A stretch of 64,000 nt of DNA from an uncultured Gammaproteobacteria bacterium (GCA_964485575.1 CAZAJO010000006.1:8990-72989), one strand, 5' to 3'. Counted from the first letter of the stretch, positions 872-64,000 are shown. The notes: generated by a model not told the origin, from the letters alone. Numbers and translations are program-made.

Positions 872-1444
872 TTATTTGGAATACTCGGGGTCTATTTTCA
901 TCTGTTCTTCTATTAAATGTCGAAAGTAATCTGATTTTGAGGGTAATTTTTTCTTTTTTGCTCCCCATTTCATATATGAATCAATTTCAGGAGTGATAAA
1001 TACATTAAATTTAATTTTGTTTTTTTTAAAATTATCTAAATAGTGTCTTAGATCCTGTTCTATTGTATTTTTCTTATACTTAATAATAGAAAAAAGGTGT
1101 GTATTTCTCTTATAAATAAGTATTCGTGGAATTTTCTCGATACTATTCTTGTCGCATAGACACAAAACTGGGATATTGTTATTTCTGGCATATTCAATGA
1201 GAATTCCGAGTGATATTGACTGATCTGAGATATCAACAATTAGCAGATCTGAATTGCTTACACTCTTAATTGCTACATCATATAGGTCTTTTGGTAAAGG
1301 TATTTTCGCTCTGTTTTCAATTATTCCGGTAAAATATGGATTGCTATTTTCAATATCATATTGATCCAAAATATCTAATACTTTTTTAAAAAGCCCATGA
1401 TTGGCTTCGGTATTTTCTGTCGAAGCTGAAATATACGCTTTCAT
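872..1444 (-). CDS. hypothetical protein, possibly nucleoside 2-deoxyribosyltransferase-like Rossmann fold
   Basis: 190-aa ORF. The segment SDLLIVDISDQSISLGILIEYARNNNIPVL resembles the Gly-rich/Glu motif of the NDT-like family. Weak. Confidence 0.4.
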   Translation of the reverse strand: MKAYISASTENTEANHGLFKKVLDILDQYDIENSNPYFTGIIENRAKIPLPKDLYDVAIKSVSNSDLLIVDISDQSISLGILIEYARNNNIPVLCLCDKNSIEKIPRILIYKRNTHLFSIIKYKKNTIEQDLRHYLDNFKKNKIKFNVFITPEIDSYMKWGAKKKKLPSKSDYFRHLIEEQMKIDPEYSK

Positions 1445-1645
1445 ACAACGGAATTATACATTTTTTAACCTCGATATTCTAACCCAAAGAAAATCTATTA
1501 TTGTGATTAATTAAATAGTTGGAGAAATACTCTTCAATTTGATTCTAATCTAATCAAATTCACCGCCTCACTTTTGGTAATTAACAAAGTTTTGTTGAAG
1601 CTAAAGGACCAGTAAGTTATAATTGTAAGGTTCGAAAACAATTAT

Positions 1646-1678
1646 TGGGATGTCGTCTAATGATCGCTCCATTAGACG
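1646..1678 (+). repeat. partial copy of tRNA-Gln 5' end (17 nt identical to 1701-1717) folded into a hairpin (CGTCTAATG...CATTAGACG)
   Basis: TGGGATGTCGTCTAATG is repeated verbatim 55 nt upstream of the tRNA. The downstream CATTAGACG is its reverse complement. Confidence 0.6.
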
Positions 1679-1700
1679 TTTGATCTCAGAAGAACTATAT

Positions 1701-1771
1701 TGGGATGTCGTCTAATGGTAGGACCGCAGCCTTTGGAGCTGTGTATTTTGGTTCGAATCCAAGCGTCCCAG
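1701..1771 (+). tRNA. tRNA-Gln (anticodon UUG)
   Basis: Manual cloverleaf. Acceptor TGGGATG/CGTCCCA (7 bp, one GU). D arm GTC-TAATGGTAG-GAC. Anticodon stem GCAGC/GCTGT, loop CTTTGGA with U33, anticodon TTG and purine 37. Variable loop 4 nt. T arm TTTGG-TTCGAAT-CCAAG. Discriminator G followed by CA. Confidence 0.8.
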
Positions 1772-1859
1772 CAAAGCACTGAACCTTCGGTCGTCAAATG
1801 AAAGCGCACCGAGTAAAACTCGGCGAAGGACCGCAGCAGAACTCTTGCGTCCCAGCATA

Positions 1860-2225
1860 TTATTTTCTGAGGATTTTGTCCATTTCTCTACCCTTTGTTA
1901 CCTCATCTACCAATTTATCAAGATACCGGATAAGTTGCATTGTTGGTTCTTTAATCTCCTCTACTCTCACCCCACAAATGACTCCGGTTATTTTATTCCT
2001 ATCAGGATTTAAATGAGGGGCATTTGCAAAAAATGTTTTGAAATCAGTCTCTTTTTCAATTTGTTCTTGTAATTGCCTTTGTGAATATCCTGTAAGCCAA
2101 CAGGTCACTTCATCAACTTCTTTTTTTGTTCTACCCTTTCTTTCAACTTTTGCAACATATAAAGGGTAAACACGCGAAAAAGTCATGCTATATATCCGTT
2201 GTAATTTCTTCTCGTCTATTTTCAT
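1860..2225 (-). CDS. hypothetical protein
   Basis: 121-aa ORF inside the tRNA-flanked islet. No recognisable motif. Confidence 0.45.
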
Positions 2226-2281
2226 AATCTCATTGTATCATTACATTTTTTTTGCAATTCATTTGCTATACTAGATTTATT

Positions 2282-2890
2282 ATGAGAAAGATTTATGTCC
2301 TCGAATTCCTTACCCTAGATGGTGTTATGCAAGCTCCAGGGGGCTCTAAGGAAGATACGAGTGAGGGATTTAAATTTGGTGGTTGGATGGGTCCTTTCTT
2401 TGGCGGTGATGAGATTGCAGGTAAGGAAATGGAAGATCAGATGAAAATGACCGCGGCATTACTTCTTGGACGAAAAACATATGAAATCTTTTCGGGATTT
2501 TGGCCGCATCATGCTACAGAAACAGAAGGCTGGCCACAAATTAACAAAATTCCAAAATATGTAATGTCCAAAACGTTAAAAAACCCCACTTGGGAAAATA
2601 CAGAAGTTATCAACGATATTGATGAACTAAGAAAATTGAAAAATTCTGATGGTCCGGATCTTCAGGTTTATGGAAGTGCAGATCTTATTCAGACTCTTAT
2701 GAAGCATGATTTAGTTGATGAATTTTGGCTCAAAATATTTCCCATTACACTAGGGACAGGAAAACGATTGTTTGAAAAAGGTACAATACCTGCTGCCTTC
2801 AATCTATATAAATCCCAAGTTACTCCGAGTGGTACTTTCTTTGGCTATTATAAACGTGCGGGAGATGTCAAAACCGAAGATATTGTATAG
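2282..2890 (+). CDS. dihydrofolate reductase family protein (RibD C-terminal domain-like, YwjB/YyaP type)
   Basis: Begins MRKIYVLEFLTLDGVMQAPGG..GGWMGPFFGGD...LLGRKTYEIF...LQVYGSADLIQTLMKHDLVDEFWLKIFPITLGTGKRLF, typical of the bacterial DHFR-like family. The tracker ORF starts 30 nt earlier at 2252; the internal ATG at 2282 fits the family N-terminus. Confidence 0.7.
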   Translation: MRKIYVLEFLTLDGVMQAPGGSKEDTSEGFKFGGWMGPFFGGDEIAGKEMEDQMKMTAALLLGRKTYEIFSGFWPHHATETEGWPQINKIPKYVMSKTLKNPTWENTEVINDIDELRKLKNSDGPDLQVYGSADLIQTLMKHDLVDEFWLKIFPITLGTGKRLFEKGTIPAAFNLYKSQVTPSGTFFGYYKRAGDVKTEDIV

Positions 2891-2978
2891 TTGTTTACGT
2901 AGTTAACAAACGCAAGCATGGTAATTCGGAATATAAAATTGCCCTACTGAAGACAACCAAAAAGTTCGAATAGCACAG

Positions 2979-3008
2979 CCGCAGGACACTGTGTATTTTG
3001 GTTCGAAT
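2979..3008 (+). repeat. degenerate 3' fragment of tRNA-Gln (CCGCAG...CTGTGTATTTTGGTTCGAAT)
   Basis: The 20-mer at 2989-3008 is identical to tRNA positions 1739-1758 (anticodon stem 3' side through T loop). The acceptor 3' strand is absent, so this is not a functional tRNA. Confidence 0.6.
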
Positions 3009-3039
3009 AATCTATCACCAGCTTTGTTATACTTTATAA

Positions 3040-3600
3040 ATGGCCTACTTCCATAGGTGGAAATATCAGAATCTCATTTTTCTTGCAATATCGATTATTG
3101 CAGCAATTTTCTTATCCCGTTACGAGCCGTTCCACGAATTTTTGCTAAAACTTGGTGGGTTTGGGTATATCGGAGCATTCGTTGCTGGAGTTTTATTTGT
3201 ATCAACTTTCACAGTTGCAACTGGTGCAATTATACTACTTGTTTTGGCCGAGCGCTTATCTCCAATAGAAATAGGTATTATTGCAGGGTTGGGAGCTGTA
3301 TTTGGAGACTTTGTTATTTTCCGTTTCGTTAAGGATAATCTTGCTAACGAAGTTGAATCAATTTATAACCATATCGACGGAGACCATCACATACGAAGAG
3401 TTTTTCATTCAAAATATTTTAGTTGGAGCGTGCCTGTAATTGGAGCAATAATAGTCGCTTCTCCCTTCCCTGACGAAATTGGAGTAAGCCTTATGGGGAT
3501 ATCGAAAATGAAAACTTACAAATTTTTATTAGTTTCATTTATTCTCAATGCGATAGGTATTTTCTTAATAGTTTCAGCTTCTAAAATCATCAAGCCCTGA
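3040..3600 (+). CDS. hypothetical multi-pass membrane protein
   Basis: 186 aa, 5-6 hydrophobic helices. Confidence 0.5.
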   Translation: MAYFHRWKYQNLIFLAISIIAAIFLSRYEPFHEFLLKLGGFGYIGAFVAGVLFVSTFTVATGAIILLVLAERLSPIEIGIIAGLGAVFGDFVIFRFVKDNLANEVESIYNHIDGDHHIRRVFHSKYFSWSVPVIGAIIVASPFPDEIGVSLMGISKMKTYKFLLVSFILNAIGIFLIVSASKIIKP

Positions 3601-3651
3601 AAAAATTATGGTCAGAAGTTGAGCATAGATTGAATTCAAAAAGTTAATAAT

Positions 3652-4251
3652 CTATGCAGATTCGTTGTCAGTCTCAATAAGGTGCTTTCTTACAATATTT
3701 TCTGATTTATCCGCATCAGGGAGTAGATCCTCAAGTATTTTTTGATACTTAAATGGATTGTGGATAAGGTAAAGATATTCATATTTTTCAGATGTCCAAT
3801 TGAAAAGCTTTAACGTCCCGAAATTGAACATCCTTCCAAAAATACCTTGATCCAATTCAACAGAGCCAATGTGCATGAGCATAAAACGTTCCTCTTGCTT
3901 GAAGATAAGACCTTTTTTAAGGACGATTTCTTTTGGTTTTATTTCGTAATATTGGTTAAGCCAGGAAACAATAACAAAGATTGTAAGGAAGGATTTTATT
4001 GCAAGCATCGTTATAAAAATCGGGATATTAAAAACAAGGATATTCTCTCCCAATCTTTGACTGACTTCTGGTGAGAAGACGAGGGTAAGGAACAATATGA
4101 GGCCAAACGCTGCTAAGATTTCAATCGTCACGAGGCGCAAATGAAGAAAAAATATACTTTGTCTGATGGTCAGATGTGTGACAATTATTTGATGAGTACC
4201 ATTCTCTTTTTTTGTGCCCATCATTTTTTCTTTGTAGTCAAGGCTTGGCAT
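3652..4251 (-). CDS. bacterial PH domain (bPH_2, YdbS/YdbT-like) membrane protein
   Basis: N-terminal two TM helices, then ..KKGLIFKQEERFMLMHIGSVELDQGIFGRMFNFGTLKL.., typical of membrane-flanked PH domains. Confidence 0.55.
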   Translation of the reverse strand: MPSLDYKEKMMGTKKENGTHQIIVTHLTIRQSIFFLHLRLVTIEILAAFGLILFLTLVFSPEVSQRLGENILVFNIPIFITMLAIKSFLTIFVIVSWLNQYYEIKPKEIVLKKGLIFKQEERFMLMHIGSVELDQGIFGRMFNFGTLKLFNWTSEKYEYLYLIHNPFKYQKILEDLLPDADKSENIVRKHLIETDNESA

Positions 4252-5058: not shown

Positions 5059-7518
5059 TCAAGAAGATTGGATGCCCTGCTCTACTTCCTTTATTTTCAG
5101 AGCGGTTTTCAGTACTGTGTCAGGGTTTAGTGAAATAGAATCCACTCCTTCACGGACCAAAAATTCTGCAAGTTCTGGAAAATCAGAGGGTCCTTGTCCA
5201 CAAATACCAACCTTCAGTCCTTTCTCATGCGCTTTTCTAATGAGCGTGCTTATGAGAGTATGGACCGCTTGATTGTTCTCATTTCCGATATGAGCAATGA
5301 GTTTTGAATCTCTATCCAAGCCCAGTGTAAGCTGGGTAAGATCATTTGACCCGATTGAAAAACCATCAAATATCTCAGCAAATTCATCTACCAAAATGAC
5401 ATTTGAGGGAACCTCAGCCATGACCCAAATGTGTAAATTTTCGTCTAGCTCTCCAGTTGATTGTAGATTTTTACCCTTGTCATGATAAAGACCATTTTTC
5501 CCCATTTCCTCAATCACTTTCCGTCCTTCTTCAGGAGTTCTACAGAAAGGGATCATGACTTGAAGATTACGTAGCCCCATCAGTGTTCTTACTTTGTTAA
5601 CAGCCTGACACTCTAGAGCAAAAGCTCTTGAGAATTTTTCGTCAGTATATCGGGAAGCCCCTCTCCACCCTATCATGGGGTTTTCCTCATGAGGTTCGTA
5701 TAATTTCCCACCGATAAGTCCAGCGTACTCATTTGACTTGAAATCGCTGAAGCGCAATAACACCTCGTGTGGATAAAAAGCTGAAGCTATTATTGCTATG
5801 CCGTATGCTAGCTTGTCAACATAATAATCAACCTTATTTGGATAACCCACAGTCAACTCATCTATCTGTCTTTTTACATCCATATCGGTCAACGAATCAT
5901 AATCAAGAAGTGCATTTGGGTGGATTTTTATGTAGTTTGAGATAATGAATTCTTCTCGGGCCAGTCCTACTCCCATATTTGGGATAAAGGAGTAGCTAAA
6001 TACCAGTTCCGGGTCTGCAATTATCATCTTTACTGCGGTCTTTGGGAGTTCAAATCCTGTAAGGTCAGTCTTGTCTACCCTATACTTGAGAATACCCTCG
6101 TAAACTTTGCCAACTTCACCCTCAGCGCAGCTTACAGTTATTTCCTTCCCGTTGGGAATTGCATTTGTGGCATTTCCAGTGCCTACGATTGCAGGAATTC
6201 CAAGTTCCCTAGACACAATTGCTGCGTGGGAAGTTCTGCCACCCGAATTTGTGACAATTGCCCCTGCAATTTTCATAATAGGTTCCCAGTCAGGATCAGT
6301 AATTTCGGCTAATAATACTTCCCCTTGCTTAAATTCAGATAATTGAGATGGATCTTTGATGAAATGTGCTGTTCCTGTTCCAATCTTTCTTCCCACTGAA
6401 GCACCTTGTGCCAGGATTGTTCCATGTTCTTCAAGAACATACTCCTCAAGCGTCATGCCATCTTTCCTTGCTTGTACGGTCTCCGGTCTTGCTTGGACTA
6501 TATAGAGACTATTTTGTTCACCGTCATATGCCCACTCTATGTCCATTGGTTTTTGGTAATGATTTTCAATAATTACTCCCCATCTTGAAAGTTGCAGTAT
6601 CTGTTCGTCAGTAAGAACGTAGGTTTGTCTTTCATTAGGGGAAACGGCGACGTCTTTTGTTGGACTTGTACCCTCTGTAGAATAGATGAGTTTTTTCTCT
6701 TTTGTGCCTAATCTTTTGCTTATTATAGAGGAGAACCCTTTTATGAGAGTTGGTTTGTGGACGACAAATTCATCGGGAGTCACAATACCTTTCACGATAT
6801 ATTCACCAAGTCCCCATGATCCGTTGATAAGAACGACATCTCTAAATCCACTATCAGAATCTAAAGTGAACATAACACCGCTACAGCCTCTATCTGATCT
6901 CACCATTTTTTGTACAGCAACAGAAAGCGCAACCTTAAAATGGTCAAAATGTTGATCTACCCGGTAAGAGATCGCTCTATTCGTAAAAAGAGATGCAAAA
7001 GCTTTTTTAATAGCATCTTCAAGAGCGTGTTCCCCTTTTATATTCAAATATGATTCCTGTTGGCCAGCAAATGAAGCGTCTGGCAGATCTTCAGCTGTTG
7101 CCGATGATCTGACAGCTACATCACAGTCATCTGTTCCTTCTCCGAGCTTTTGAGGTAATTGATGATATGCCTCATATATTTCTTTTTTCAATTCTTCAGG
7201 GAATGGAGAGGCAATGATAAGATCTCTGATTTTGCTCCCCACATTCTCTAATTGCTTAATGTCTGAAGTATTTAGGTCTTGCAAAAATTCCCTGATTTTT
7301 GCATCAAGCTGATTTTTTTCAATGAAATATCTGTAGGAATATGCAGTAACCGCAAAACCAAAAGGCACTTTAACGTGTTCATCGGGAAAAAGTTGACTCG
7401 TTGCGTTGGTTAGATTTTGATACATTTCGCCAAGGTTGGCATTTTTTCCACCTACGAGAGGAATGTCATCTTTATTCACTTCGTCGAACCAAAGTACGAA
7501 TTTTTGTGCTTTATCCAT
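5059..7518 (-). CDS. ppsA: phosphoenolpyruvate synthase (pyruvate, water dikinase)
   Basis: 819 aa. N-terminal ATP-grasp-like region (DDIPLVGGKNANLGEM), phosphohistidine domain (GGRTSHAAIVSRELGIP), C-terminal PEP-utilising TIM barrel (GICGQGPSDFPELAEFLV). Confidence 0.9.
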   Translation of the reverse strand: MDKAQKFVLWFDEVNKDDIPLVGGKNANLGEMYQNLTNATSQLFPDEHVKVPFGFAVTAYSYRYFIEKNQLDAKIREFLQDLNTSDIKQLENVGSKIRDLIIASPFPEELKKEIYEAYHQLPQKLGEGTDDCDVAVRSSATAEDLPDASFAGQQESYLNIKGEHALEDAIKKAFASLFTNRAISYRVDQHFDHFKVALSVAVQKMVRSDRGCSGVMFTLDSDSGFRDVVLINGSWGLGEYIVKGIVTPDEFVVHKPTLIKGFSSIISKRLGTKEKKLIYSTEGTSPTKDVAVSPNERQTYVLTDEQILQLSRWGVIIENHYQKPMDIEWAYDGEQNSLYIVQARPETVQARKDGMTLEEYVLEEHGTILAQGASVGRKIGTGTAHFIKDPSQLSEFKQGEVLLAEITDPDWEPIMKIAGAIVTNSGGRTSHAAIVSRELGIPAIVGTGNATNAIPNGKEITVSCAEGEVGKVYEGILKYRVDKTDLTGFELPKTAVKMIIADPELVFSYSFIPNMGVGLAREEFIISNYIKIHPNALLDYDSLTDMDVKRQIDELTVGYPNKVDYYVDKLAYGIAIIASAFYPHEVLLRFSDFKSNEYAGLIGGKLYEPHEENPMIGWRGASRYTDEKFSRAFALECQAVNKVRTLMGLRNLQVMIPFCRTPEEGRKVIEEMGKNGLYHDKGKNLQSTGELDENLHIWVMAEVPSNVILVDEFAEIFDGFSIGSNDLTQLTLGLDRDSKLIAHIGNENNQAVHTLISTLIRKAHEKGLKVGICGQGPSDFPELAEFLVREGVDSISLNPDTVLKTALKIKEVEQGIQSS

Positions 7519-7586
7519 AAGAATTTCCTGCCCCTTAATTAAATAATAAATGATTTTTTCAATAAATGATATTGATCAAATTACTC

Positions 7587-7602
7587 TGTGATTCATATCA
7601 TA
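7587..7602. promoter_or_regulatory. CRP/FNR-type palindromic site TGTGATTCATATCATA
   Basis: Matches TGTGA-N6-TCACA at 9 of 10 positions. It lies 69 nt upstream of the ppsA start and next to a Crp/Fnr-family regulator gene. Confidence 0.4.
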
Positions 7603-7637
7603 GAAAAAAGCTCACAAGTATTATATTGTGTTGACAT

Positions 7638-7988
7638 ATGATTCAATCGACTGGACATGGGAGCTACAGATTATACGAGACCAAAAGCCATGTAAAAATT
7701 GTCGAACTTGGGAAAGACAAATATATTTGGCTTTTAGCACCAGGAATTGGAGAGATAATAGTTCTGACTACAGCAGTTCACAAAATAAAAAACTTTCTTT
7801 CCATTGGTAACTACCGCCTGTACAAGGTAAAAGATGAGCCGGATTTTACCGACCTTCTGCATTTGGAACTATTTATTGGCGACAGCATTTGGCAAGGATA
7901 TCTTCTTCCTACAGGTCTTCCAACAACAACAAAGAAAAGAAGGAGGATTATCCCAACAAATGAAATCATTACGAAAGTGACACTCTAG
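7638..7988 (+). CDS. hypothetical protein (uncertain)
   Basis: 116-aa ORF in the ppsA-crp intergenic space. No motif. Confidence 0.25.
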   Translation: MIQSTGHGSYRLYETKSHVKIVELGKDKYIWLLAPGIGEIIVLTTAVHKIKNFLSIGNYRLYKVKDEPDFTDLLHLELFIGDSIWQGYLLPTGLPTTTKKRRRIIPTNEIITKVTL

Positions 7989-8629
7989 ACATTTTCCGAA
8001 AACTCATCCTGAAACTTTTTACCGTCATGGATTACGATCTTATTTCTTTCGACCTTCACAAGCCCTTTATCCTTAAGGATTCTTAATTCGCGGCTGATCG
8101 TCTCTCTTGTCATGCCCGTTTGTGATGCAATATCCTTTTCAGATGTTTGGATTTCAACACCTATGGCTGTTTTTTTGCCAAATCTTTTTGCGAGGATGCC
8201 AAGTTCTGACATGAGTCTTGTGCTTGCGCTTCCTGCCATCAGATGAGTCATCTTGCCCAAAAGCCCTTCAGTCCCAAGGTATACTCTTGAAAGAAGATCA
8301 AACAATACGTCAGGATTATTTTTTATGAAATCCAATGTGTCATCCTTTGGACAACGGTACAATTCAAGATCAGTCACCGCTTCGTAGAAATAGGTATTGG
8401 GTGTATCATTGATTGCCCAAGACATCGGGAAAAAGGCCTTGGGTTTGAACAGATTTACAACAAGTTCATCCCCTTTTTTTGAGATTGCATAAACTTTGAC
8501 ATTACCATTCATTAGATAAAAAATGCCTTGCGGCTGATCATCGGCTCTTATCAAAAGCTCCCCTTTTTTATACTTCTGATTTTTATATTTTGAGAAAAAA
8601 GCTAAAACTTTTTCTTCGACTGGAGACAT
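7985..8629 (-). CDS. Crp/Fnr family transcriptional regulator
   Basis: cNMP-binding beta-roll (LLIRADDQPQGIFYLMNGNVKVY) plus C-terminal HTH (EIQTSEKDIASQTGMTRETISRELRILKDKGLV). Confidence 0.8.
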   Translation of the reverse strand: MSPVEEKVLAFFSKYKNQKYKKGELLIRADDQPQGIFYLMNGNVKVYAISKKGDELVVNLFKPKAFFPMSWAINDTPNTYFYEAVTDLELYRCPKDDTLDFIKNNPDVLFDLLSRVYLGTEGLLGKMTHLMAGSASTRLMSELGILAKRFGKKTAIGVEIQTSEKDIASQTGMTRETISRELRILKDKGLVKVERNKIVIHDGKKFQDEFSENV

Positions 8630-15415: not shown

Positions 15416-16087
15416 ATGCGTATACTTCTCATCGAAGATGAACATAAGATAGCAAATTCCATTAAAAAGGGTTTAGAGCAGGAGTCTTATGCTGTCGATG
15501 TAGCTTATGATGGTACAAAAGGTTACGATTATGCCTCAACTGAAGAATATGATGCGATAGTTCTTGACCGTCTTTTACCGGGAATTGACGGGCTTACGAT
15601 CTGTAAAAAGCTACGCGCTTCATCAATACACACTCCTATTCTTATGCTAACCGCCCGTGGGGAGATATCTGAGCGTGTCGAAGGCCTTAATAGTGGCGCT
15701 GATGATTATCTTTCTAAGCCTTTTGCATTTATTGAATTACTAGCGCGGATAAGAGCTCTTATTAGAAGACCAAAATCTTCATTGGGTTCACACTTACAGG
15801 TTGCCGACCTGATCCTCAATCCCGTCACTTATAGAGTTGAAAGAGATGGTATTGTGATCTCTCTTTCAAATAAGGAATTTTCCCTTTTAGAATACCTGAT
15901 GCGTCATAAAGGAACTATCATCAAAAAAGACCAGATAATAAATCATGTTTGGAGCTATGATGCGGATGTTCTCCCTAATTCTGTTGAGGTTTATATAACT
16001 CATCTGAGAAATAAGATAGACAAACCCTTTCCAAATTCAAAAAATCTCATCTCAACCATCCGAGGTTTTGGGTATAAAATCGAATAG
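15416..16087 (+). CDS. two-component response regulator, OmpR/PhoB family
   Basis: REC domain (MRILLIEDE..DAIVLDRLLPGIDGL..LMLTARG) plus winged-helix (VEVYITHLRNKID..IRGFGYKI). Confidence 0.9.
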   Translation: MRILLIEDEHKIANSIKKGLEQESYAVDVAYDGTKGYDYASTEEYDAIVLDRLLPGIDGLTICKKLRASSIHTPILMLTARGEISERVEGLNSGADDYLSKPFAFIELLARIRALIRRPKSSLGSHLQVADLILNPVTYRVERDGIVISLSNKEFSLLEYLMRHKGTIIKKDQIINHVWSYDADVLPNSVEVYITHLRNKIDKPFPNSKNLISTIRGFGYKIE

Positions 16088-16089: not shown

Positions 16090-17097
16090 ATGTTCCACTC
16101 AACTCGCCTCAAATTAACCGCCTGGTACCTCATTATCATAGTTTTTATTAGCATGGTTTTTAGCGTCGTTATCTATATAGATGTCAATCGTGAGTTGGAA
16201 AGATTCGAAAATTTCCAAAAAATCCGTCAGGAAAGGATGAAGGAAGACTTTGGAGAATTAAAACTTCCCCCGATGAGTCTTGCTGTTGATATGCAACTAA
16301 TACGGGAAGCCAGAGCTCGGCTCATTGCAAGCCTTGCAATTCTTAATGCATGTATATTTGCAGGATCCGGGGTTGCAGGTTACTTCTTAGCGGGAAGAAC
16401 GTTAAAACCTATCAAGGACATGCTTGATGACCAGTCGCGTTTCGTTGGCGATGCTTCTCATGAACTAAAGACTCCTTTGACATCACTCCGTTCGGAAATA
16501 GAAGTTCATCTTAGATCCAAAAAAAGTACATTAAAGGAAGCGAATGAAATATTAAAAAGTAATCTCGAGGAAGTGATGCGTCTGCAAAGCCTTACAGACA
16601 GTCTCATGGAGTTGACGTCATTTGAAAGCGCTGGGTTGAGCTCAAGTTTTGAGAAAGTATTACTTTCAGATATCCTCATGGAAGCAATAAAGAATGTGGA
16701 GCCCATGGCCAAAGCAAAGAAGATAGAAATCGTAAATAGAGCTGTCAAGATGAAAATAATGGGGAATGAAAGAAGTCTTGTCAGACTGTTTACGATCCTT
16801 CTTGATAACGCAATCAAATATAGCACGAGAAGTAAGAGAGTGACCCTTACTTCCGGTATTTTGGATGAGGTGATGTATGTAAAAGTTACGGATCAAGGAA
16901 TAGGAATTGATAGCTCAGAGATTGATAAGGTGTTTAACAGATTTTATAGGATAGATAAATCCAGAAACTCTCTTTCAGTTCCAGGGTACGGGCTTGGTCT
17001 ATCTATCGCTCGAGAAATTACTCAAAGACATGGAGGAAATATATCAGTCAAAAGTAGCACTAAGGGGTCGGTTTTCACCATTGAATTTCCAGTTTGA
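16090..17097 (+). CDS. sensor histidine kinase
   Basis: Two TM, HAMP-like segment, H box DASHELKTPLTSL, N box LLDNAIKYS, G boxes DQGIGI and GYGLGLSIA. Confidence 0.9.
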   Translation: MFHSTRLKLTAWYLIIIVFISMVFSVVIYIDVNRELERFENFQKIRQERMKEDFGELKLPPMSLAVDMQLIREARARLIASLAILNACIFAGSGVAGYFLAGRTLKPIKDMLDDQSRFVGDASHELKTPLTSLRSEIEVHLRSKKSTLKEANEILKSNLEEVMRLQSLTDSLMELTSFESAGLSSSFEKVLLSDILMEAIKNVEPMAKAKKIEIVNRAVKMKIMGNERSLVRLFTILLDNAIKYSTRSKRVTLTSGILDEVMYVKVTDQGIGIDSSEIDKVFNRFYRIDKSRNSLSVPGYGLGLSIAREITQRHGGNISVKSSTKGSVFTIEFPV

Positions 17098-21685: not shown

Positions 21686-21747
21686 AGAATATATTAAGCC
21701 TCTTTTCAGTCTACCTCTCTATAGTTGATTCTTAGTATAATCCAAAT

Positions 21748-22197
21748 ATGCGAAAATACTTACAGATCTCAGTAGTTATTTTAATTATCCTTCTTGCCGC
21801 ATATTTTAAAAACACGCCAGATAATGATGAGGACGAAAAAATAAATATTCAAGCACCTTCTCCAACAACAGTCTCAACTGTTACTGTAAGTCCAACTACT
21901 TCGGTTAGCTCTTCAAAATACAAAGATGGGGTATATGATGGAAGCATAGAAGACGCAGTTTATGGAGATCTTCAAGTGGAAGTTGTTATTGCGGGTGGTA
22001 GGATAACAGATGTTAGTGAGTTGATGTACCCTGACGATAATCACACGTCAATTGCAATAAACAAACAAGCTCTTACTATTCTAAAACAAGAGGCTATTGA
22101 TAGACAAAGTTTTGATGTAGATATAGTTACTGGCGCATCTGACTCAGCTCCTGCATTTGCAAGATCGTTGGAAGTAGCACTAAGTAAAGCTTTGTAG
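21748..22197 (+). CDS. FMN-binding domain protein (NqrC/RnfG-like), membrane anchored, with flavinylation motif
   Basis: N-terminal TM anchor, Thr/Ser/Pro linker, FMN_bind-like domain ending ..QSFDVDIVTGASDSA. DIVTGAS (nt 22120-22140) fits the Dxx(s/t)gA(T/S) ApbE-dependent flavinylation motif. Confidence 0.7.
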   Translation: MRKYLQISVVILIILLAAYFKNTPDNDEDEKINIQAPSPTTVSTVTVSPTTSVSSSKYKDGVYDGSIEDAVYGDLQVEVVIAGGRITDVSELMYPDDNHTSIAINKQALTILKQEAIDRQSFDVDIVTGASDSAPAFARSLEVALSKAL

Positions 22198-22222
22198 AGT
22201 TTTTCTATACCAGATAACTCTT

Positions 22223-22250
22223 GCTCAAATTTCCAACTGAAAATTTGAGC
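22223..22250 (+). terminator. perfect 10-bp inverted repeat hairpin (GCTCAAATTT-N8-AAATTTGAGC)
   Basis: Sits 26 nt after the FMN_bind stop codon, before a TATAAT-like box upstream of apbE. Terminator or attenuator lacking a clear U-tract. Confidence 0.4.
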
Positions 22251-22312
22251 TGAGACTCTCGGTATAATACTCGTTCAAGGACTTATATTTTGATAACATA
22301 GGAACTCGTATT

Positions 22313-23047
22313 ATGAAGGTAACAGAAGGAATCATGGGAATGAGTGTTGCTGTTGAAGTACTTGACGAATGTGATGGTTCTGATGTTGATGAAATATTGG
22401 ATTACTTCCATGAAGTTGACGAGATGTTCAGCACATACAAAAGAACGAGCGAGATAAGTAAAATCAACAGGAAGGAGCTTCGTATAGAGGATGCGAGTCC
22501 AGATGTTAAAAAAATTCTTAGACTTTGTGAAGAGACAAGGAGTCTGACTCATGGGTATTTTGATATTCACGTAGAGGGAGTTCTGGATCCATCCGGCCTT
22601 GTTAAGGGGTATGCTATCTCCGAAGCGTCAAAAAGACTGATAAAAAAAGGTTACAAGAACTTTTATATTGAAATCGGAGGAGATATCGATATTCATGGGT
22701 TGAAGAATGGACAAAAATGGAAGGTTGGAGTGCGGGACCCAAGAGACACAACTACTACTAAAGGAGTTTTGCATTTGACTAACGTTGGGATAGCAACTTC
22801 GGGAACTTACGAACGTGGAATGCATATATATGATCCTATTAAAAAGAAGCTAGCAAATGAAGTCTCAAGCCTTACTGTTATTGGTCCGGATGTATATGAA
22901 GCTGATAGATTTGCAACGGCCGCGTATGCTATGGGCAAGAAAGGAATTGATTTTTTAGATACAATAGAAGGTGTTGAAGGATATATGATCGCGCGTGACG
23001 GAAAAGAATATTTGACTGAAGGCTTTCGTAATTATCTTAAAAGATGA
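22313..23047 (+). CDS. apbE: FAD:protein FMN transferase (ApbE family)
   Basis: ..IHVEGVLDPSGLVKGYAISEA...IEIGGDI...GIATSGTYERGMHIYDP...ADRFATAAY is the ApbE signature. Short (244 aa) version. Confidence 0.8.
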   Translation: MKVTEGIMGMSVAVEVLDECDGSDVDEILDYFHEVDEMFSTYKRTSEISKINRKELRIEDASPDVKKILRLCEETRSLTHGYFDIHVEGVLDPSGLVKGYAISEASKRLIKKGYKNFYIEIGGDIDIHGLKNGQKWKVGVRDPRDTTTTKGVLHLTNVGIATSGTYERGMHIYDPIKKKLANEVSSLTVIGPDVYEADRFATAAYAMGKKGIDFLDTIEGVEGYMIARDGKEYLTEGFRNYLKR

Positions 23048-24579
23048 AATATATAGACGCACTTCTCAATAGAATTACGATGTATAGGCTAGTCCTCTAT
23101 GTTCTAATCTCGTGGGTTGGGATTGGTGCTGTGTTGGGATTTTTAGACAGCATTCCATACAAAGGATTTGATATTTTAATGACAGCTTCAATAGCAGTCA
23201 TTTCTTGCTTTATAACAAATTACCTCTTCTCAAAGGTATTTAATGCAGTTACTAATATAGAGTCCGTTTTTGTGACCGCACTTATCCTGACGCTTATTTT
23301 TCCAATAGCTTTCCCTTCAAGTCTTGCTCCACTTGTTGTGGTATCAGTAATTGCTATGGCATCAAAATATCTTTTGACCATCGAAAAAAGACATATATTT
23401 AACCCAGCAGCAGTTGCTGTCCTTGTTGTTGGTTATTTTGCCCCCGACTACTCAGCTATCTGGTGGATCGGATCAAATGCCATTATCATACCTGTCTTTA
23501 TTGGCGGGTTCTTGATCATAAGAAAAATAAGAAGAGAAGATCTAGTATTGTCATTTCTTCTTACATTCCTACTCATGAGCGGAATCGGAAGTTATCTTAA
23601 CAATGGTTCAGTAGATTCTATTCTAAACGTCTGGAGGCAAAGTCTTCTTTCCTCTGCTCTAATATTCTTCGCTTTCGTGATGCTCACAGAACCACTTACT
23701 TCTCCTACTACAAAAAAGTTTCAACGATTTTACGCAATTATTGTTGCTATTTTGTATAGTAGTCCCCTTCTGAGACTTGGAATCTTTGCTATTACACCGG
23801 AGATGGCACTTGTTGGTGGAAATATATTTTCATTTATCGTAAGTCCAAAATATAGGCTTCTTCTAACGCTTCAAAGAAAAATTAAACTTTCTGATGACAC
23901 ATTCCTTTTTGATTTTGGTTCTATAAAAAAATTCCAGTTTGTGCCCGGCCAATATTTGGAATGGACGCTTCCGCATTCGCATGTAGATTCAAGGGGAAAC
24001 CGTCGATACTTCAGTATTGCCTCAGGCAAGAATGAGAATCTCATGATGGCAGTTAAATTCTACAAGCCTTCAAGTAGTTATAAAAATGCTCTTTTGAATT
24101 TGCAGCCTGGTGAAAAGATGATAGCAACAAGTCTTGCTGGGGATTTTGTCCGCCCTAAAAACCCATCTATTCCGCTCGTTTTTATCGCAGGTGGAATTGG
24201 AATAACTCCCTTCAGAAGCATGATCGAAGACATCATAGAAAAAAAACAAAATGTTAATATCGCATTGCTTTTTGCTAATAAAAATGAGAGTGACATTGTT
24301 TTTAAAGAAGATTTGGAGAAAGCGAGAAATTTTGGAGTTAAGACGCATTATATCTTGACTGACAAAGACAAAACTCCGTCGACCTGGAATGGGCTCAGAG
24401 GTCATATTGATAGTGATATGGTTAAAAAACTCTTGCCTGATTTTCAGAAAAGAGTTTTCTTTATTTCTGGGCCACAGCTTATGGTGCAGAATTTCGAAAA
24501 AATGCTTAGAACTATGGGTGTCAGAAAAAGTAACATTAAGTCCGATTTTTTCCCTGGCTACAAAGAAACAGTAGCATAA
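23044..24579 (+). CDS. RnfD/NqrB-like membrane domain fused to FNR-like FAD/NAD(P)H-binding oxidoreductase domain
   Basis: ATGA overlap with apbE stop. N-terminal roughly 290 aa with about 9 TM containing HIFNPAAVAVL and MLTEPLTSPTT. From memory these correspond to E. coli RsxD NPFNPAM and LTDPVTASTT, the latter the FMN-threonine region. C-terminal about 220 aa carries RRYFSIAS (RxYS FAD motif), GGIGITP (NAD(P) GxGxxP) and FISGP. Confidence 0.65.
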   Translation: MKYIDALLNRITMYRLVLYVLISWVGIGAVLGFLDSIPYKGFDILMTASIAVISCFITNYLFSKVFNAVTNIESVFVTALILTLIFPIAFPSSLAPLVVVSVIAMASKYLLTIEKRHIFNPAAVAVLVVGYFAPDYSAIWWIGSNAIIIPVFIGGFLIIRKIRREDLVLSFLLTFLLMSGIGSYLNNGSVDSILNVWRQSLLSSALIFFAFVMLTEPLTSPTTKKFQRFYAIIVAILYSSPLLRLGIFAITPEMALVGGNIFSFIVSPKYRLLLTLQRKIKLSDDTFLFDFGSIKKFQFVPGQYLEWTLPHSHVDSRGNRRYFSIASGKNENLMMAVKFYKPSSSYKNALLNLQPGEKMIATSLAGDFVRPKNPSIPLVFIAGGIGITPFRSMIEDIIEKKQNVNIALLFANKNESDIVFKEDLEKARNFGVKTHYILTDKDKTPSTWNGLRGHIDSDMVKKLLPDFQKRVFFISGPQLMVQNFEKMLRTMGVRKSNIKSDFFPGYKETVA

Positions 24580-24633: not shown

Positions 24634-24906
24634 ATGCAATCCCATAATTCAAATCCATGTACCCGTTGCGGGAAAGAAAGAATTGAAGGAAAAAAGTGGA
24701 AAGAAGAGATAGCTACTTTTTTTGGAACCTCTACAATCATTCATCAAGATACTATTTGCCCTGATCCGGAGTGTCAAAAAATCGTTGAAGAAAAATTAGA
24801 ACAGCAAAAACAGAAGTCAGACGAATTAAAGCAAGAAAAGCAAAAAAAGGTGGATATAGCAACAGCTGCACGAAAGTTAAAAGCACTACAAAACCTCAAG
24901 AACTAA
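24634..24906 (+). CDS. small Cys-pair (zinc-ribbon-like) coiled-coil protein
   Basis: CTRCG...CPDPEC, then a Lys/Gln/Glu-rich helix. Confidence 0.4.
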   Translation: MQSHNSNPCTRCGKERIEGKKWKEEIATFFGTSTIIHQDTICPDPECQKIVEEKLEQQKQKSDELKQEKQKKVDIATAARKLKALQNLKN

Positions 24907-25399
24907 TACGTTTATATACCAGAAATATGGTTACACCCGCGATCAACACGAGATACACATAAGTGACGTAATTTGCTATTCCTGAATTGTTTTTTGTGTC
25001 CATAATGCTTTTCCCTACCTCAAGCTCAAGTTCGGTAAAAAACCCAGGAGATTTACTGTCAAAGATAATGTAATAAGTGCCTTCTTTGTCAAATGTCACA
25101 GTAGCTGATGCATTGTAGAGGCTACTCGTTCTTTTTACCTCCGTAACTGGTTTTGTGAGAAGTTTTTTGCGATCTCTGTAAATTGTAATTGTGCAATCAC
25201 AGTCTTTTACATTAAATTCTTTTGAAGAGTCATCAATCTGGAAGTGTAAAACGGTTTCTTGATTGATAAGTGGTCTATCATCGGGTTCTGCGTGCATGAG
25301 AACTTTAATAGATCCCACTCCTTCAGCGGTATGGGCGTGCACACTCTCTTTGTTAAAAAGGAAAATGCAGAGGACAAACAGAAAAATTATTTTTTTCAT
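24896..25399 (-). CDS. secreted protein with C-terminal TM anchor, predicted mature N-terminus at His
   Basis: Signal peptide ..FNKESVHA then HTAEG... C-terminal TM YVYLVLIAGVTIFLVY. The His-start could be a metal-binding (His-brace-like) feature; this is speculative. Confidence 0.4.
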   Translation of the reverse strand: MKKIIFLFVLCIFLFNKESVHAHTAEGVGSIKVLMHAEPDDRPLINQETVLHFQIDDSSKEFNVKDCDCTITIYRDRKKLLTKPVTEVKRTSSLYNASATVTFDKEGTYYIIFDSKSPGFFTELELEVGKSIMDTKNNSGIANYVTYVYLVLIAGVTIFLVYKRISS

Positions 25400-26391: not shown

Positions 26392-28176
26392 ATGTTTTTT
26401 CCCAAGTTACTTTCTTATGTCAGGTCTTTTTTTCTGCCTTTTTTGGTAGTTGTCGGTCTTATCGCGTACCTTATCTTAAGTTTTGGAAATTTCACAACCT
26501 TATCAATTATCATTGCATATGCATCAATCCTTTTAGGTTCATACCCTCTCATAGCTGAGTCTATTGAGGACATAAAAAATAGACAGTTTGGATTAGACTA
26601 CATCGCGATACTAGCTATAGCTGTAGCCCTTATAACTCATGAATATTTGGTTGGGATCATTCTCGGACTCATGCTTGCGACCGGCAGAAATTTAGAGGAT
26701 TTTGCATCAAAACTTGCTAAAAAGTCTCTCAGTAGTTTGGCTGAAAGAATACCTCATGATATTGGAGTTGAAGATAATGGAACTGTTATGAGTAAGTCAG
26801 TAGGTTCAATAAGTATTAACGAGATAATTGTTGTGAGAAAAGGGGAAGTAATACCTCTTGATGGTTTATTGCTCTCTCCAACAGCTGTTGTTGACGAATC
26901 AAGTCTCACCGGTGAGGCATTTCCGGCAGATAAATATAGTGGGGACCTATTAAGGTCAGGAATTCTCAATCTTGAGTCAGTGATACGCGTAAAAGTCACC
27001 AAGTCCGAGAAAGATTCAACCTATAAAAAAATAGTGCAACTCGTTGAAAGGGCACAGAGTGAAAAAGCACCACTTGTGAGACTTGCTGACAAATATAGTC
27101 TGTATTTTACAGTGATAACTCTTATCATTAGTGGCTTTGCATATCTTTTGCATCCTAACTTGGAAGCAATTCTAGCTGTATTGGTTGTTGCGACTCCTTG
27201 CCCATTGATACTCGCAACCCCAATCGCATTAATTGGTGGAATGAATGCTCAAGCTCGAAAAAGAATCATCATTAAAAAACTTGCTAGCATCGAATCCTTG
27301 TCGCGGGTGGACACTATAATTTTTGATAAAACAGGTACTCTCACACTTGGAAAACCACACGTTGCTAAATTTGTTCTGCACGAAAAAATTGATAGAAATC
27401 GCCTTTTATCTATAGCCGGATCAATAGAACGCAATTCACTACACCCCTTAGCAAAAGCAATTGTTGACTATACTGCCAAAGGTCCAACAATAGAAGTCTC
27501 TGACGTAGCAGAGGTTGTGGGAAAAGGTATCTCAGGAGTTGTTGATGGGAAAAAATATCTATTAGCAAAAATGGATTCCTCAGATGCGGCAATGAGAATT
27601 GGGATCTTTAAGGATAAAACCGTTTTAGGAGAATTTGTTTTTGAAGATCAACTGAAGGTAGAGTCAAAAAAAACGATTGAGAGCTTAAGAAACTTAAACA
27701 TGACTATAAAAATATTTACAGGAGACAAGCTGCGTACAGCGGTTGAATTGGTAAAAAAGATAGGAATAGAGATCGAAGTTAAGGCAGGTCTAAAGCCTGA
27801 GGACAAGCAAAAGGGTATCGAAGATCTTAAGCGCGAAGGAAGGACTGTTGCTATGGTTGGAGATGGAATAAATGACGCTCCTGCACTTGCTCTTTCTGAT
27901 GTAGGAATGGTTTTTGCAAATGATGAGCAAACTGCTGCTTCAGAAGCAGCTGATATTGTACTTCTCGGTGGTAACTTTTCCTCCGTACTCTATTCTATCC
28001 TTAGTGCGAAGAGGACAATTTCAATAGCAAAGCAAAGCATTTTGTGGGGAATTGGACTTAGTATCTTGTGTATGATCCTAGCAGCGTTAGGTTACATTCC
28101 CCCACTGGCCGGATCTTTGATACAAGAAGGCATAGACGTAGCTGTCATCCTCAACGCCTTAAGAGCTGCAAGATGA
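26392..28176 (+). CDS. heavy-metal translocating P1B-type ATPase without N-terminal metal-binding domain
   Basis: TM6 TPCP motif (ATPCPLILATP), phosphorylation DKTGTLT, GDGINDAP hinge. No CxxC HMA domain at the N-terminus. Confidence 0.85.
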   Translation: MFFPKLLSYVRSFFLPFLVVVGLIAYLILSFGNFTTLSIIIAYASILLGSYPLIAESIEDIKNRQFGLDYIAILAIAVALITHEYLVGIILGLMLATGRNLEDFASKLAKKSLSSLAERIPHDIGVEDNGTVMSKSVGSISINEIIVVRKGEVIPLDGLLLSPTAVVDESSLTGEAFPADKYSGDLLRSGILNLESVIRVKVTKSEKDSTYKKIVQLVERAQSEKAPLVRLADKYSLYFTVITLIISGFAYLLHPNLEAILAVLVVATPCPLILATPIALIGGMNAQARKRIIIKKLASIESLSRVDTIIFDKTGTLTLGKPHVAKFVLHEKIDRNRLLSIAGSIERNSLHPLAKAIVDYTAKGPTIEVSDVAEVVGKGISGVVDGKKYLLAKMDSSDAAMRIGIFKDKTVLGEFVFEDQLKVESKKTIESLRNLNMTIKIFTGDKLRTAVELVKKIGIEIEVKAGLKPEDKQKGIEDLKREGRTVAMVGDGINDAPALALSDVGMVFANDEQTAASEAADIVLLGGNFSSVLYSILSAKRTISIAKQSILWGIGLSILCMILAALGYIPPLAGSLIQEGIDVAVILNALRAAR

Positions 28177-62484: not shown

Positions 62485-62994
62485 ATGAATAAAACTCTTA
62501 TTGTAGTTCTACTCGCGGTCATAGTTCTGGTGGCTATAGGAGCATTTGCTTACTCTCAAAGTTCATCAGACACTGGCTCTGCTATGATGTCTAAAGAGCT
62601 TGATGGGGAAGAAGAAATGGCTGTGAAAAGTGAAAAAATGGATAAAACGGATATTGAAAATGTAGAAAGTTCACGATACACCGTTTATACAAACGCAACT
62701 GATTTGGAGCATCTAGAGTCAAAAAGAGTGCTGTTCTTTTATGCTTCATGGTGTCCCACGTGTAGGCCAGCGGATGCCGATTTTAAGGCAAATTTAGACA
62801 AAATACCTTCAGATTTCACTGTAGTAAGAGTCAACTACAATGATCCTGAAACTGACCAGTCTGAAAGGGATCTTGCCAAAAAATATGCGGTTACCTACCA
62901 ACATACTTATGTTCAAATTGACTCAAATGGGAAAGAAATCCGAAAATGGAATGGAGGAGGTTTAACCGAACTTCTAGGGAATATCGTGCAGTAA
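62485..62994 (+). CDS. membrane-anchored thioredoxin-like protein (WCxxC)
   Basis: Signal-anchor, then LFFYASWCPTCRPAD. Confidence 0.7.
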   Translation: MNKTLIVVLLAVIVLVAIGAFAYSQSSSDTGSAMMSKELDGEEEMAVKSEKMDKTDIENVESSRYTVYTNATDLEHLESKRVLFFYASWCPTCRPADADFKANLDKIPSDFTVVRVNYNDPETDQSERDLAKKYAVTYQHTYVQIDSNGKEIRKWNGGGLTELLGNIVQ

Positions 62995-62996
62995 AT

Positions 62997-64000
62997 ATGA
63001 TTCTACTCGTTGCTTTTGCCTTTCTAGCCGGTTTTATAACCATTCTATCTCCTTGTATCCTTCCAATACTACCCATTGTACTCTCTGGATCCCTAACAGG
63101 GGGTCATCGAAGGCCTCTTGGAATTGTAGTTGGATTTATATTAAGCTTTTCCCTCTTTACACTATTCCTCGCAACGATCGTGAAGACTACTGGAATATCT
63201 GCGGATGTTTTGCGAGCTTTTTCAGTAGTTATTATTCTTCTTTTCGGAGCAAGTTTGCTTTTGCCGAATTTTCAACTAACTATGGAAAAGCTTTTTACAA
63301 AGCTCTCATCTATTGTGAGTAGGAATTCGACACAAGCATCCGGCTTTTGGAGTGGTCTTGTCCTTGGAATGAGTCTTGGACTTGTCTGGACGCCGTGTGT
63401 TGGACCTATCATTGCATCTGTTATCACGCTTGCTGCTACAAGCTCAGTTAACGGAAGCGCAATCCTAATAACCTTTGCCTACTCTTTAGGTACCGCCATC
63501 CCTATGTTTGCTATCACGTATGGTGGGCGTTCATTACTCAATAAAGTCCCCTGGTTACTTCGCAACACAGCGCGTATACAAAAAGGTTTTGGAGTTCTGA
63601 TGATTATTGTTGCAATAAGCATCTTCTTCAATCTTGATAGGCAATTTCAGGTGCTAGTCTTAGATAAATTCCCTTCGTATGGTGTTGGTTTGACCAAGCT
63701 TGAAGACAATGATTTAGTCAAAAACTTATTAAAAAAGAACAACTCACTACTGGACAAGAATTTGGTTGGAAAGCCGATGCCAAACGAAGGATCTTTCCCC
63801 CAAGCACCTGAACTCATAGCGGGTGGGGAATGGCTCAATAGCACACCACTTACTTTGTCTTCCCTGAGAGGAAAGGTCGTTCTCATTGATTTTTGGACAT
63901 ACACTTGCATCAACTGCATTAGAACACTACCTTACTTAAAGTCATGGAATGAAAAATATAAGGACAAAGGACTTGTTATTATTGGCGTTCACACACCCGA
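62997..64000 (+). CDS. fusion: CcdA/DsbD-beta cytochrome c biogenesis-type thiol-disulfide transporter + C-terminal TlpA/ResA-like thioredoxin domain (runs off window)
   Basis: ILSPCILPILP and WTPCVGPI (the two conserved Cys of the CcdA TM core). Later VVLIDFWTYTCINCIRTLPYL (CxxC thioredoxin fold). No stop before 64000. Confidence 0.7.
   Translation, partial: MILLVAFAFLAGFITILSPCILPILPIVLSGSLTGGHRRPLGIVVGFILSFSLFTLFLATIVKTTGISADVLRAFSVVIILLFGASLLLPNFQLTMEKLFTKLSSIVSRNSTQASGFWSGLVLGMSLGLVWTPCVGPIIASVITLAATSSVNGSAILITFAYSLGTAIPMFAITYGGRSLLNKVPWLLRNTARIQKGFGVLMIIVAISIFFNLDRQFQVLVLDKFPSYGVGLTKLEDNDLVKNLLKKNNSLLDKNLVGKPMPNEGSFPQAPELIAGGEWLNSTPLTLSSLRGKVVLIDFWTYTCINCIRTLPYLKSWNEKYKDKGLVIIGVHTP

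Follow-up and report, generated by a model that had tools for sequence, protein, structure and literature searches.

A 64,000-nucleotide stretch of DNA recorded as an uncultured Gammaproteobacteria bacterium (GCA_964485575.1, CAZAJO010000006.1:8990-72989; hereafter the window, meaning the whole stretch) carries, at positions 21748-24579, a compact cluster encoding an FMN_bind protein, the flavin transferase ApbE, and a fusion of an RnfD/NqrB-like membrane domain with an FNR-type dehydrogenase. We consider this locus to be, probably, the published NQR/RNF-like, flavinylation-associated transmembrane electron-transfer system, residing in a Levybacteria-like genome of the candidate phyla radiation (CPR). 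In the mechanism that we favor, NAD(P)H (in all likelihood NADH) would be oxidised by the cytosolic FNR-like domain with the help of a flavin adenine dinucleotide (FAD) that is not covalently bound. Electrons would then travel through the ten-helix RnfD/NqrB-like domain, which has lost its own covalent flavin mononucleotide (FMN) loop and presumably works with a non-covalently bound flavin. They would next reach an FMN at the outer face, covalently attached by ApbE to Ser131 of the membrane-anchored FMN_bind protein, and from this FMN they would pass onward to a further acceptor.

The cluster consists of three open reading frames (ORFs) in series on the + strand: the gene for a membrane-anchored, NqrC/RnfG-like FMN_bind protein (21748-22197, 149 amino acids, aa), a compact apbE gene (FAD:protein FMN transferase; 22313-23047, 244 aa), and the fusion gene (23044-24579, 511 aa). 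The last two share a 4-bp ATGA overlap at 23044-23047. Both the row of three genes and the overlap had been pointed out in an initial reading made from the DNA alone (the sequence-only reading), and they are found exactly as described there.

The name 'NQR/RNF-like system' was given to flavinylation gene clusters in which an N-terminal PF03116 domain is fused to a C-terminal PF00175 domain, with the operational definition that the fusion gene is no more than five genes away from a gene for ApbE or FMN_bind (Méheust 2021, eLife 10:e66878, PMC8238504). Our fusion has PF03116 and a C-terminal PF00175, its gene overlaps that of ApbE, and the FMN_bind gene comes next upstream. The system is reported "primarily" in Actinobacteria and CPR (PMC8238504, PMC11334425). 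For the complex of Ktedonobacter racemifer, a structural model has the small subunit docked on the outer face, and its authors propose that the covalent FMN of this subunit reaches a vacant non-covalent flavin site of the membrane domain (Huang 2024, mSystems 9:e00375-24, PMC11334425). Architecture, mechanism and occurrence in CPR were already published in 2021 and 2024, and the locus is an ordinary member of the system, not a new one. The sequence-only reading had drawn a minimal wire from NAD(P)H to FAD, to FMN and to an extracytosolic FMN, which equals the published model; the part of it that did not survive is the covalent, Thr-bound FMN of the RnfD-like domain, which is lost. It had also expected the remaining Rnf/Nqr and Fe-S subunits to be lacking, and this held: no other rnf/nqr subunit (Rnf-Nqr family, RnfA/E, NqrD/E) was found among the window's ORFs with multiple transmembrane (TM) segments, and neither RnfA/E and NqrD/E nor Fe-S subunits (RnfB/C, the NqrF ferredoxin domain) were found in the conserved neighbourhood of 80 related loci, which we took from a species-representative genome collection.

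Membrane and dehydrogenase domains of the fusion

The RnfD/NqrB-like domain spans aa 1-268 of the fusion (23044-23847, + strand). The protein matches the Pfam family NQR2_RnfD_RnfE (PF03116) with 58 bits, over a gathering cutoff of 27.7, and a 195-sequence family profile aligned to E. coli RsxD over 251 columns in hhalign (Prob 95.3%, E=2e-8). A phmmer search of PDB sequences with the N-terminal domain alone gave no match, so that the family profile and hhalign were required to see this relationship. The full-length AlphaFold2 model, built on a 43-sequence alignment (pLDDT 84.5, pTM 0.80), has ten TM helices (residues 13-266) followed by the FNR module (271-503). Foldseek returned FNR-type matches only for this full-length model; for a separate model of the N-terminal domain (pLDDT 78), the top 15 PDB matches were all RnfD or NqrB chains, with query TM-scores of 0.57-0.76, and the matches after them were urea transporters at E>0.1. 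The RnfD/NqrB-like nature of this domain, which had been put forward beforehand as a claim open to refutation, is therefore borne out by Pfam, by the RsxD profile alignment and by the fold.

Both ends of the membrane domain are predicted from the model to be cytoplasmic, as a cytosolic FNR domain would require. Two basic loops, EKRH (114-117) and RKIRRED (160-166), lie on the FNR-domain side of the membrane, in agreement with the positive-inside rule.

Two hallmark segments had been singled out in the membrane domain, HIFNPAAV (117-124) and LTEPLTSPTT (214-223), and both are present in the fusion. In the hhalign alignment FNPAA (119-123) pairs with FNPAM of RsxD (121-125). The second segment had been taken for the region of the FMN-bearing threonine, and this was a mistake: it corresponds to the TDPVT motif, which is conserved in RnfD/NqrB. 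(M)LTEPLTSPTT (213-223) pairs with FILTDPVTASTT of RsxD (residues 293-304), and the family profile aligns the TEPLTSPTT region to 'ATDPVSAS' of Vibrio cholerae NqrB and 'ATDPVTSP' of Azotobacter vinelandii RnfD. TEPLTSPTT (aa 215-223; 23686-23712, + strand) lies in the loop between TM8 and TM9 and aligns to 'LTDPVTASTT' of RsxD (295-304). E216, P217, T219 and P221 are invariant in the fusion family.

The true site of covalent flavin attachment lies elsewhere in RnfD/NqrB, and it is this part that the fusion has lost. RsxD residues 146 to ~222, with the flavinylation motif DGISQAT187, align to a gap in the fusion, so that the covalent-FMN loop is deleted. Likewise, NqrB 208-279 is matched by residues 125-150 of the query only, and T236 falls in an unaligned, shortened stretch. 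Where RnfD/NqrB have the long loop with the flavinylated Thr, the fusion has a short outer loop between TM5 and TM6, APDYSAIWWIGS (aa 133-144; 23440-23475, + strand), in which 'SAIWW' (137-141) pairs with 'MTSWL' of RsxD (139-143). Loss of this site is what has been described for the system, in whose membrane subunit the flavinylated Thr of NqrB/RnfD is not conserved (Huang 2024, PMC11334425); in our protein the T187/T236 loop is missing and position 139 is an Ile.

Position 139 belongs to a strongly conserved family motif at the end of TM5, A-[TS]-W-W-x-G, of which W140, W141 and G143 are invariant. At the residue itself (window 23458-23460), the window fusion and the proteins closest to it carry Ile; among the 195 sequences it is Thr in 134, Ser in 34 and Ile in 19. 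We considered A-[TS]-W-W as a relic flavinylation site and rejected it: it aligns to T140-S141-W142 of RsxD, where TM5 ends, and in the window protein Ile takes the T/S place. Ser occupies position -6 and His position -3, and the Asp at -6, the Ser/Thr at -3 and the Gly at -2 of the flavinylation motif are absent.

The membrane domain could be put to another use, that of a minimal ion-translocating redox pump, with NADH-driven transfer coupled to Na+ or H+ and providing a small ion-motive force to fermentative cells. The full RnfD/NqrB fold is retained, and the invariant acidic residues of the membrane domain in the family (E73, E216 and E253) include one, E216, that aligns with the Asp of the TDP motif of NqrB/RnfD, which we take to be NqrB D346, implicated in Na+ handling. 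However, NqrD/E (RnfA/E), which are electron-path subunits in Nqr/Rnf, were found neither in the cluster nor elsewhere in the window, and we regard such a pump as improbable compared with the electron transfer across the membrane proposed for the NQR/RNF-like system.

The second half of the fusion (aa 271-511; 23854-24579, + strand), predicted to be cytosolic, is an FNR-type FAD/NAD(P)H dehydrogenase domain. NAD_binding_1 (PF00175) matches residues 380-484 with 64 bits, and FAD_binding_6 (PF00970) scores 21.6 bits, just over its cutoff of 21.1. The motifs RRYFSIAS (320-327), GGIGITP (383-389) and ISGP (474-477), listed in the sequence-only reading, are all in the fusion, and its assignment of a C-terminal FNR-type module is upheld by both Pfam families, by the R-x-Y-[ST] and G-x-G-x-x-P motifs and by a two-domain fold. 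The nearest solved relatives of this domain by sequence are the FAD domain of NqrF (7qu3, 3.7e-14) and NADH-cytochrome b5 reductase (2eix, 5.4e-14), and the Foldseek matches of the full model are b5 reductase, NqrF and flavohaemoglobin, with E between 1e-13 and 1e-17. NADH is weakly suggested as the electron donor, because the closest solved relatives by sequence are all NADH enzymes and because the fusion segment LLFANKNESDIVF resembles a segment of b5 reductase whose Asp, we assume, favours NADH.

The FMN_bind protein and its leaderless ApbE

The 149-aa protein has a hydrophobic N-terminal anchor (~residues 4-20), a linker rich in Pro, Thr and Ser, and an FMN_bind domain (~residues 58-149). 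On its own it reaches 18.9 bits against Pfam FMN_bind (PF04205), under the cutoff of 22. The NqrC/RnfG-like assignment made from the DNA is rescued by its family, since a 28-sequence profile matches the solved FMN-binding domain 8p2a_A with E=1.8e-21 and all 28 homologs match PF04205. The flavinylation motif DIVTGAS had been noticed too, and it is present at residues 125-131, conforming to D-x-x-[ST]-G-A-[ST]. The family consensus 'vsGAs' pairs with 'VSGAT' of 8p2a_A, G129 and A130 are invariant among the 28 homologs, and position 131 is Ser or Thr. From the motif, Ser131 (codon at 22138-22140, + strand), its last residue, would be the residue that bears the FMN. It is also the only predicted covalent flavin site, and hence the only predicted ApbE target, in the cluster, because the Thr-bearing loop is deleted from the RnfD-like domain.

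That the second gene encodes ApbE, as proposed, is clear from its 142.5 bits against Pfam ApbE (PF02424) and from its solved relatives (7esa, 6nxi, 5mgy and 4xgw, E from 5e-16 to 5e-14), the nearest by sequence being Listeria FmnB (7esa, E=5e-16) and Vibrio ApbE. We looked for a signal peptide, a lipobox and a transmembrane segment in the window's cluster ApbE and found none of them. The start codon of the gene lies 7 residues ahead of the first conserved strand (MGM), with an AGGA ribosome-binding site just ahead of it, and no N-terminal extension is possible because an in-frame stop (22265-22267) stands 46 nt upstream of the ATG. The same is true of the related loci, in which a leader is absent from all 46 cluster ApbEs: these start 5-20 residues before the first conserved strand and have no hydrophobic segment. 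The 46 loci come from CPR, from Spirochaetia and, in one case, from a record naming an actinobacterium. The two papers on the system (Méheust 2021, PMC8238504; Huang 2024, PMC11334425) do not mention a leaderless cluster ApbE in the portions searched. One precedent is cited in a review on ApbE, namely a soluble fumarate reductase that is flavinylated in the cytoplasm in K. pneumoniae (PMC12052999).

Two observations weigh against the transmembrane electron transfer that we favor. First, ApbE is leaderless in the window and in 46/46 loci, yet its substrate is predicted to face outward, a conflict that stands unless attachment of FMN precedes export. Second, in full-text literature searches we found the system described only in two comparative-genomics and modelling studies, and found no experimental study. 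As to the first, attachment of FMN may precede export, the cytosol may be where the FMN_bind domain resides, or there may be another ApbE or another export route.

If the FMN_bind domain were cytosolic, the whole flavin chain could be cytoplasmic: the domain would be tethered by its N-terminal helix and, with no export of electrons through it, would shuttle electrons between the RnfD-like domain, at its cytosolic face, and the FNR domain, or else act as a reductase on a substrate in the cytosol or membrane. The missing leaders speak for this arrangement, as does the fact that the K. pneumoniae precedent is cytoplasmic (PMC12052999), and the Lys and Arg counts on the two sides of the anchor are near balance (2 vs 2-3). 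Nevertheless, by the charge-difference rule the N side of the anchor is the more positive one in 46 of 49 homologs, predicting an N-in/C-out orientation, and the anchors are followed by long Pro/Thr/Ser-rich linkers. The published multimer model also puts the subunit on the outer face (PMC11334425). We therefore hold an entirely cytoplasmic chain to be unlikely, if somewhat less so than an ion pump, and keep to an outward-facing FMN_bind protein as part of the NQR/RNF-like system.

Distribution, partner variants and neighbouring genes

The fusion belongs to a large family. A word-index search returned more than 6000 matches, and the best 120 of them were all ~500 aa long with PF00175, nearly all also with PF03116, their named sources being Levybacteria. 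In an exhaustive profile search with the N-terminal domain, 522 clusters (50% identity) reached E<=1e-30, and 1291 were counted when the threshold was E<=1e-10. About one third of the best 150 relatives of the N-terminal domain are only 200-395 aa long, and these may be fragments at contig ends or stand-alone RnfD-like proteins without an FNR domain. Over 43 sequences, with 51-74% identity to the window fusion, ~85 residues are invariant. Of the 80 loci, 46 have their genes in the order FMN_bind, ApbE, fusion, covering CPR lineages, Spirochaetia and the one record with an actinobacterial name.

These data bear on the simplest objection to any function, that the cluster is what is left of a canonical rnf or nqr operon, displaced or in decay. 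Each of the three proteins is indeed a homolog either of an Rnf/Nqr part or of the maturation factor. Such a remnant is nonetheless effectively refuted by the size of the conserved family of intact, full-length fusions (the 522 clusters and ~85 invariant residues), by a three-gene order that is kept across phyla, by FAD, NAD and flavinylation motifs that are intact, and by the lack of rnf/nqr genes nearby. Second copies of the three cluster genes were not found within the window.

The closest relatives of the fusion are in Levybacteria-type CPR metagenome-assembled genomes (MAGs), with 58-74% identity, and the closest of the 80 loci (numbered L001 onward) is L069, with 74%. The 80 loci span CPR (Levy-, Andersen-, Wolfe-, Doudna-, Woese-, Davies-, Berkel- and Saccharibacteria) and also include one record under the title Salinibacterium (a genus of actinobacteria) and MAGs of Spirochaetia, several of which have two loci. 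Many records with the cluster are titled, like that of the window, 'uncultured Gammaproteobacteria bacterium' (L001, L002, L003, L013, L019, L023, L033, L069 and others; 46-74% identity). Because the cluster is otherwise found here in CPR-named records, and these titles sit among loci named as Levybacteria or Patescibacteria, we doubt these names, which look like pipeline mislabels.

A few genomes carry more than one locus. In a Saccharimonadales MAG (L078) the whole three-gene cluster occurs twice in tandem, at 1310-4035 and 5765-8499. In the Spirochaetia MAGs with two loci (L042/L045, L044/L048, L039/L049) one locus is complete and the second is without ApbE; of these second loci, L048 and L049 retain FMN_bind only and L045 has neither partner.

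Clustering of the neighbouring ORFs of the 80 loci revealed no gene consistently linked to the fusion besides FMN_bind and ApbE, and the partners themselves come in variants. In five loci (L023 4028-5430, L038 4622-5976, L055, L065 and L073 4646-5998), which we call type B, the FMN_bind-like protein is divergent, with '…V[SA]GSSLT…' replacing D-x-x-[ST]-G-A-[ST], and the ApbE, of ~288 aa, is again leaderless. One of them, L023, also carries an FMN_bind protein of the usual type (type A) and a tandem pair of fusions. In six loci FMN_bind immediately precedes the fusion, with no ApbE beside it. Finally, in eleven loci without an ApbE or FMN_bind neighbour (L036, L037, L053, L054 at 5446-5898, L059, L060, L062, L063, L067, L070 and L079; also L057 at 231-740), a membrane-anchored, His-rich and Cys-less cupredoxin-like protein adjoins the fusion, matching PF13473 with E from 1e-7 to 3e-4. 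This variant occurs in Wolfe-, Woese-, Davies-, Doudna- and Saccharibacteria, among others, and its anchor has the same polarity as that of FMN_bind in 9 of 11 cases. Cupredoxins are normally extracytosolic, and the presence of one in the partner position therefore suggests an outward-facing acceptor site and a modular exporter with interchangeable outer partners. The same replacement of FMN_bind, found in other lineages, argues against the cytosolic FMN_bind domain considered above.

Regulation may be a further common trait. An OmpR-type response regulator and a histidine kinase lie directly beside the cluster in ~19 loci (L006, L014, L019, L020, L039, L040, L074 and L078 among them). The window has such a pair at 15416-16087 and 16090-17097, 4.65 kb upstream of the cluster, and this is the pair in the window that best matches the cluster-adjacent ones, with 65% and 46% identity to the two proteins encoded directly downstream of the L014 fusion. 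The two-component pair may be a dedicated regulator of the cluster. Neither the cupredoxin-partner variant nor an adjacent two-component system was found in the searched parts of the texts of Méheust 2021 and Huang 2024.

Putting these traits together leads to a broader proposal, to which we give a tentative minority weight and under which the system may depart from the accepted logic of 'extracytosolic flavinylation'. ApbE would be cytosolic in every lineage examined, with FMN attached before export or the FMN_bind protein on the cytosolic face, and the fusion would be a general, modular, NADH-driven electron exporter of CPR, with covalent-FMN and His-rich cupredoxin proteins as interchangeable partners and under dedicated two-component control. 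If this were true, the fusion could be the main membrane redox enzyme of CPR organisms that otherwise have no respiratory chain.

CPR bacteria, which are ultra-small, are generally seen as fermentative symbionts without respiratory chains. A two-protein wire from NAD(P)H to the outside would let such cells shed reducing equivalents, or reduce extracellular iron, copper or host-derived acceptors, and with its small size (two proteins and one maturation enzyme) it lends itself well to reconstitution. To the published model we add that ApbE is leaderless, that the RnfD flavin loop is lost completely, that a cupredoxin takes the partner position in some loci and that a two-component system is often linked. 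As a discovery the locus adds little; what interest is left lies in the paradox of the leaderless ApbE, in the cupredoxin swap and in the ease of reconstitution.

The cluster of the window has one conspicuous peculiarity, the 115-bp spacer between the FMN_bind gene and apbE (22198-22312, + strand). It contains a hairpin at 22223-22250, a TATAAT box at 22264-22269 and the AGGA ribosome-binding site at 22300-22303. The hairpin is the perfect 10-bp one that had been seen after the first gene, with arms GCTCAAATTT and AAATTTGAGC (22223-22232 and 22241-22250) and an 8-nt loop, and it sits within a longer, imperfect stem (~22206-22267; RNA fold -27 kcal/mol, z=-1.98). A canonical terminator was ruled out, given that a T-run is absent and the terminator pattern is unmatched. 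As a riboswitch the hairpin found no Rfam match either, the sole Rfam match in the window being one tRNA. The spacer is an insertion compared to the relatives L069 and L001, whose FMN_bind and apbE genes abut or overlap, and its sequence occurs only once within the window. This lineage-specific insertion could represent a small element that was acquired here, or else an internal promoter or a stem with a regulatory role. A second TATAAT lies upstream of the FMN_bind gene (window 21736-21750), where the box ends 6 nt before the ATG and a Shine-Dalgarno sequence is absent; the transcript of this gene may be leaderless.

Downstream of the fusion, a 90-aa four-Cys zinc-ribbon/coiled-coil protein is encoded at 24634-24906 and is kept only in the closest relatives (L001-L004 and L069). 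It is followed on the opposite strand by a 167-aa protein (24896-25399) with no Pfam match and with a hydrophobic segment at either end (these are probably a signal peptide and an anchor at the C-terminus), and further on by a P-type ATPase (26392-28176) with the PCP motif within 'ATPCPLILATP'. We discarded a functional link of the cluster to the P-type ATPase, to a polysaccharide deacetylase and to the 90-aa zinc-ribbon gene, which are either not conserved or shared with very close relatives alone.

The sequence-only reading had gathered more distant genes into an envelope redox theme. Their identities were right: the window has an MsrB (SelR, 7e-44) with no hydrophobic stretch at the start of its ORF, a thioredoxin-like protein anchored at its N-terminus (62485-62994), and a CcdA/DsbD-like membrane protein (~62994-64000) to which a TlpA-like thioredoxin domain (…FWTYTCINC…) is fused and which runs off the window end. 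The theme found no support: there is no conserved linkage and the genes lie 8-40 kb away. The thioredoxin and CcdA-TlpA genes are a separate thiol-reducing export system, with no tie to the cluster in the conserved neighbourhood.

Comparison with known systems

The published NQR/RNF-like system is the same in every essential respect: it has the FMN_bind, ApbE and fusion architecture, a home in CPR and Actinobacteria, a lost flavinylation site in the membrane domain and a proposed one-way electron flow from NAD(P)H to the outside. Peculiar to our locus are the 115-bp hairpin spacer and the Ile that takes the place of the usual Thr or Ser in A-[TS]-W-W.

With Na+-NQR (NqrABCDEF) and Rnf (RnfABCDGE) the cluster shares a membrane domain homologous in sequence and fold to NqrB/RnfD, an FNR domain that is nearest to the FAD domain of NqrF, and ApbE as the common maturation factor. 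In contrast, there are two polypeptides here instead of six, and the cluster is without NqrD/E, RnfA/E, RnfB/C, NqrA, any Fe-S domain and the 2Fe-2S ferredoxin domain of NqrF. The covalent-FMN loop of NqrB/RnfD is deleted, the dehydrogenase is fused to the membrane subunit, and the proposed flow of electrons is one-way, whereas it is U-shaped in those complexes.

Flavin-based extracellular electron transfer in Listeria (Ndh2, EetA/B, PplA, FmnB/ApbE) resembles our system in having a membrane-anchored FMN_bind protein as the proposed outer carrier, in working in a single-membrane cell and in depending on flavinylation by ApbE. It differs in its use of a type II NADH dehydrogenase and the quinone pool, whereas here the dehydrogenase is fused to the membrane domain, no quinone step is implied and ApbE is leaderless; the Listeria ApbE (FmnB) is described as acting outside the cytosol (PMC9973259).

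The NOX/FRE enzymes, such as Streptococcus pneumoniae NOX (8qt6/8qq7), which is among the matches of the FNR domain of the fusion, also combine in one polypeptide a membrane conduit and a C-terminal cytosolic FAD/NAD(P)H module of the FNR type. Their membrane domains are unrelated to ours: the conduit is a six-helix di-haem domain in NOX/FRE, and a ten-helix RnfD/NqrB fold, presumably flavin-based, in the fusion.

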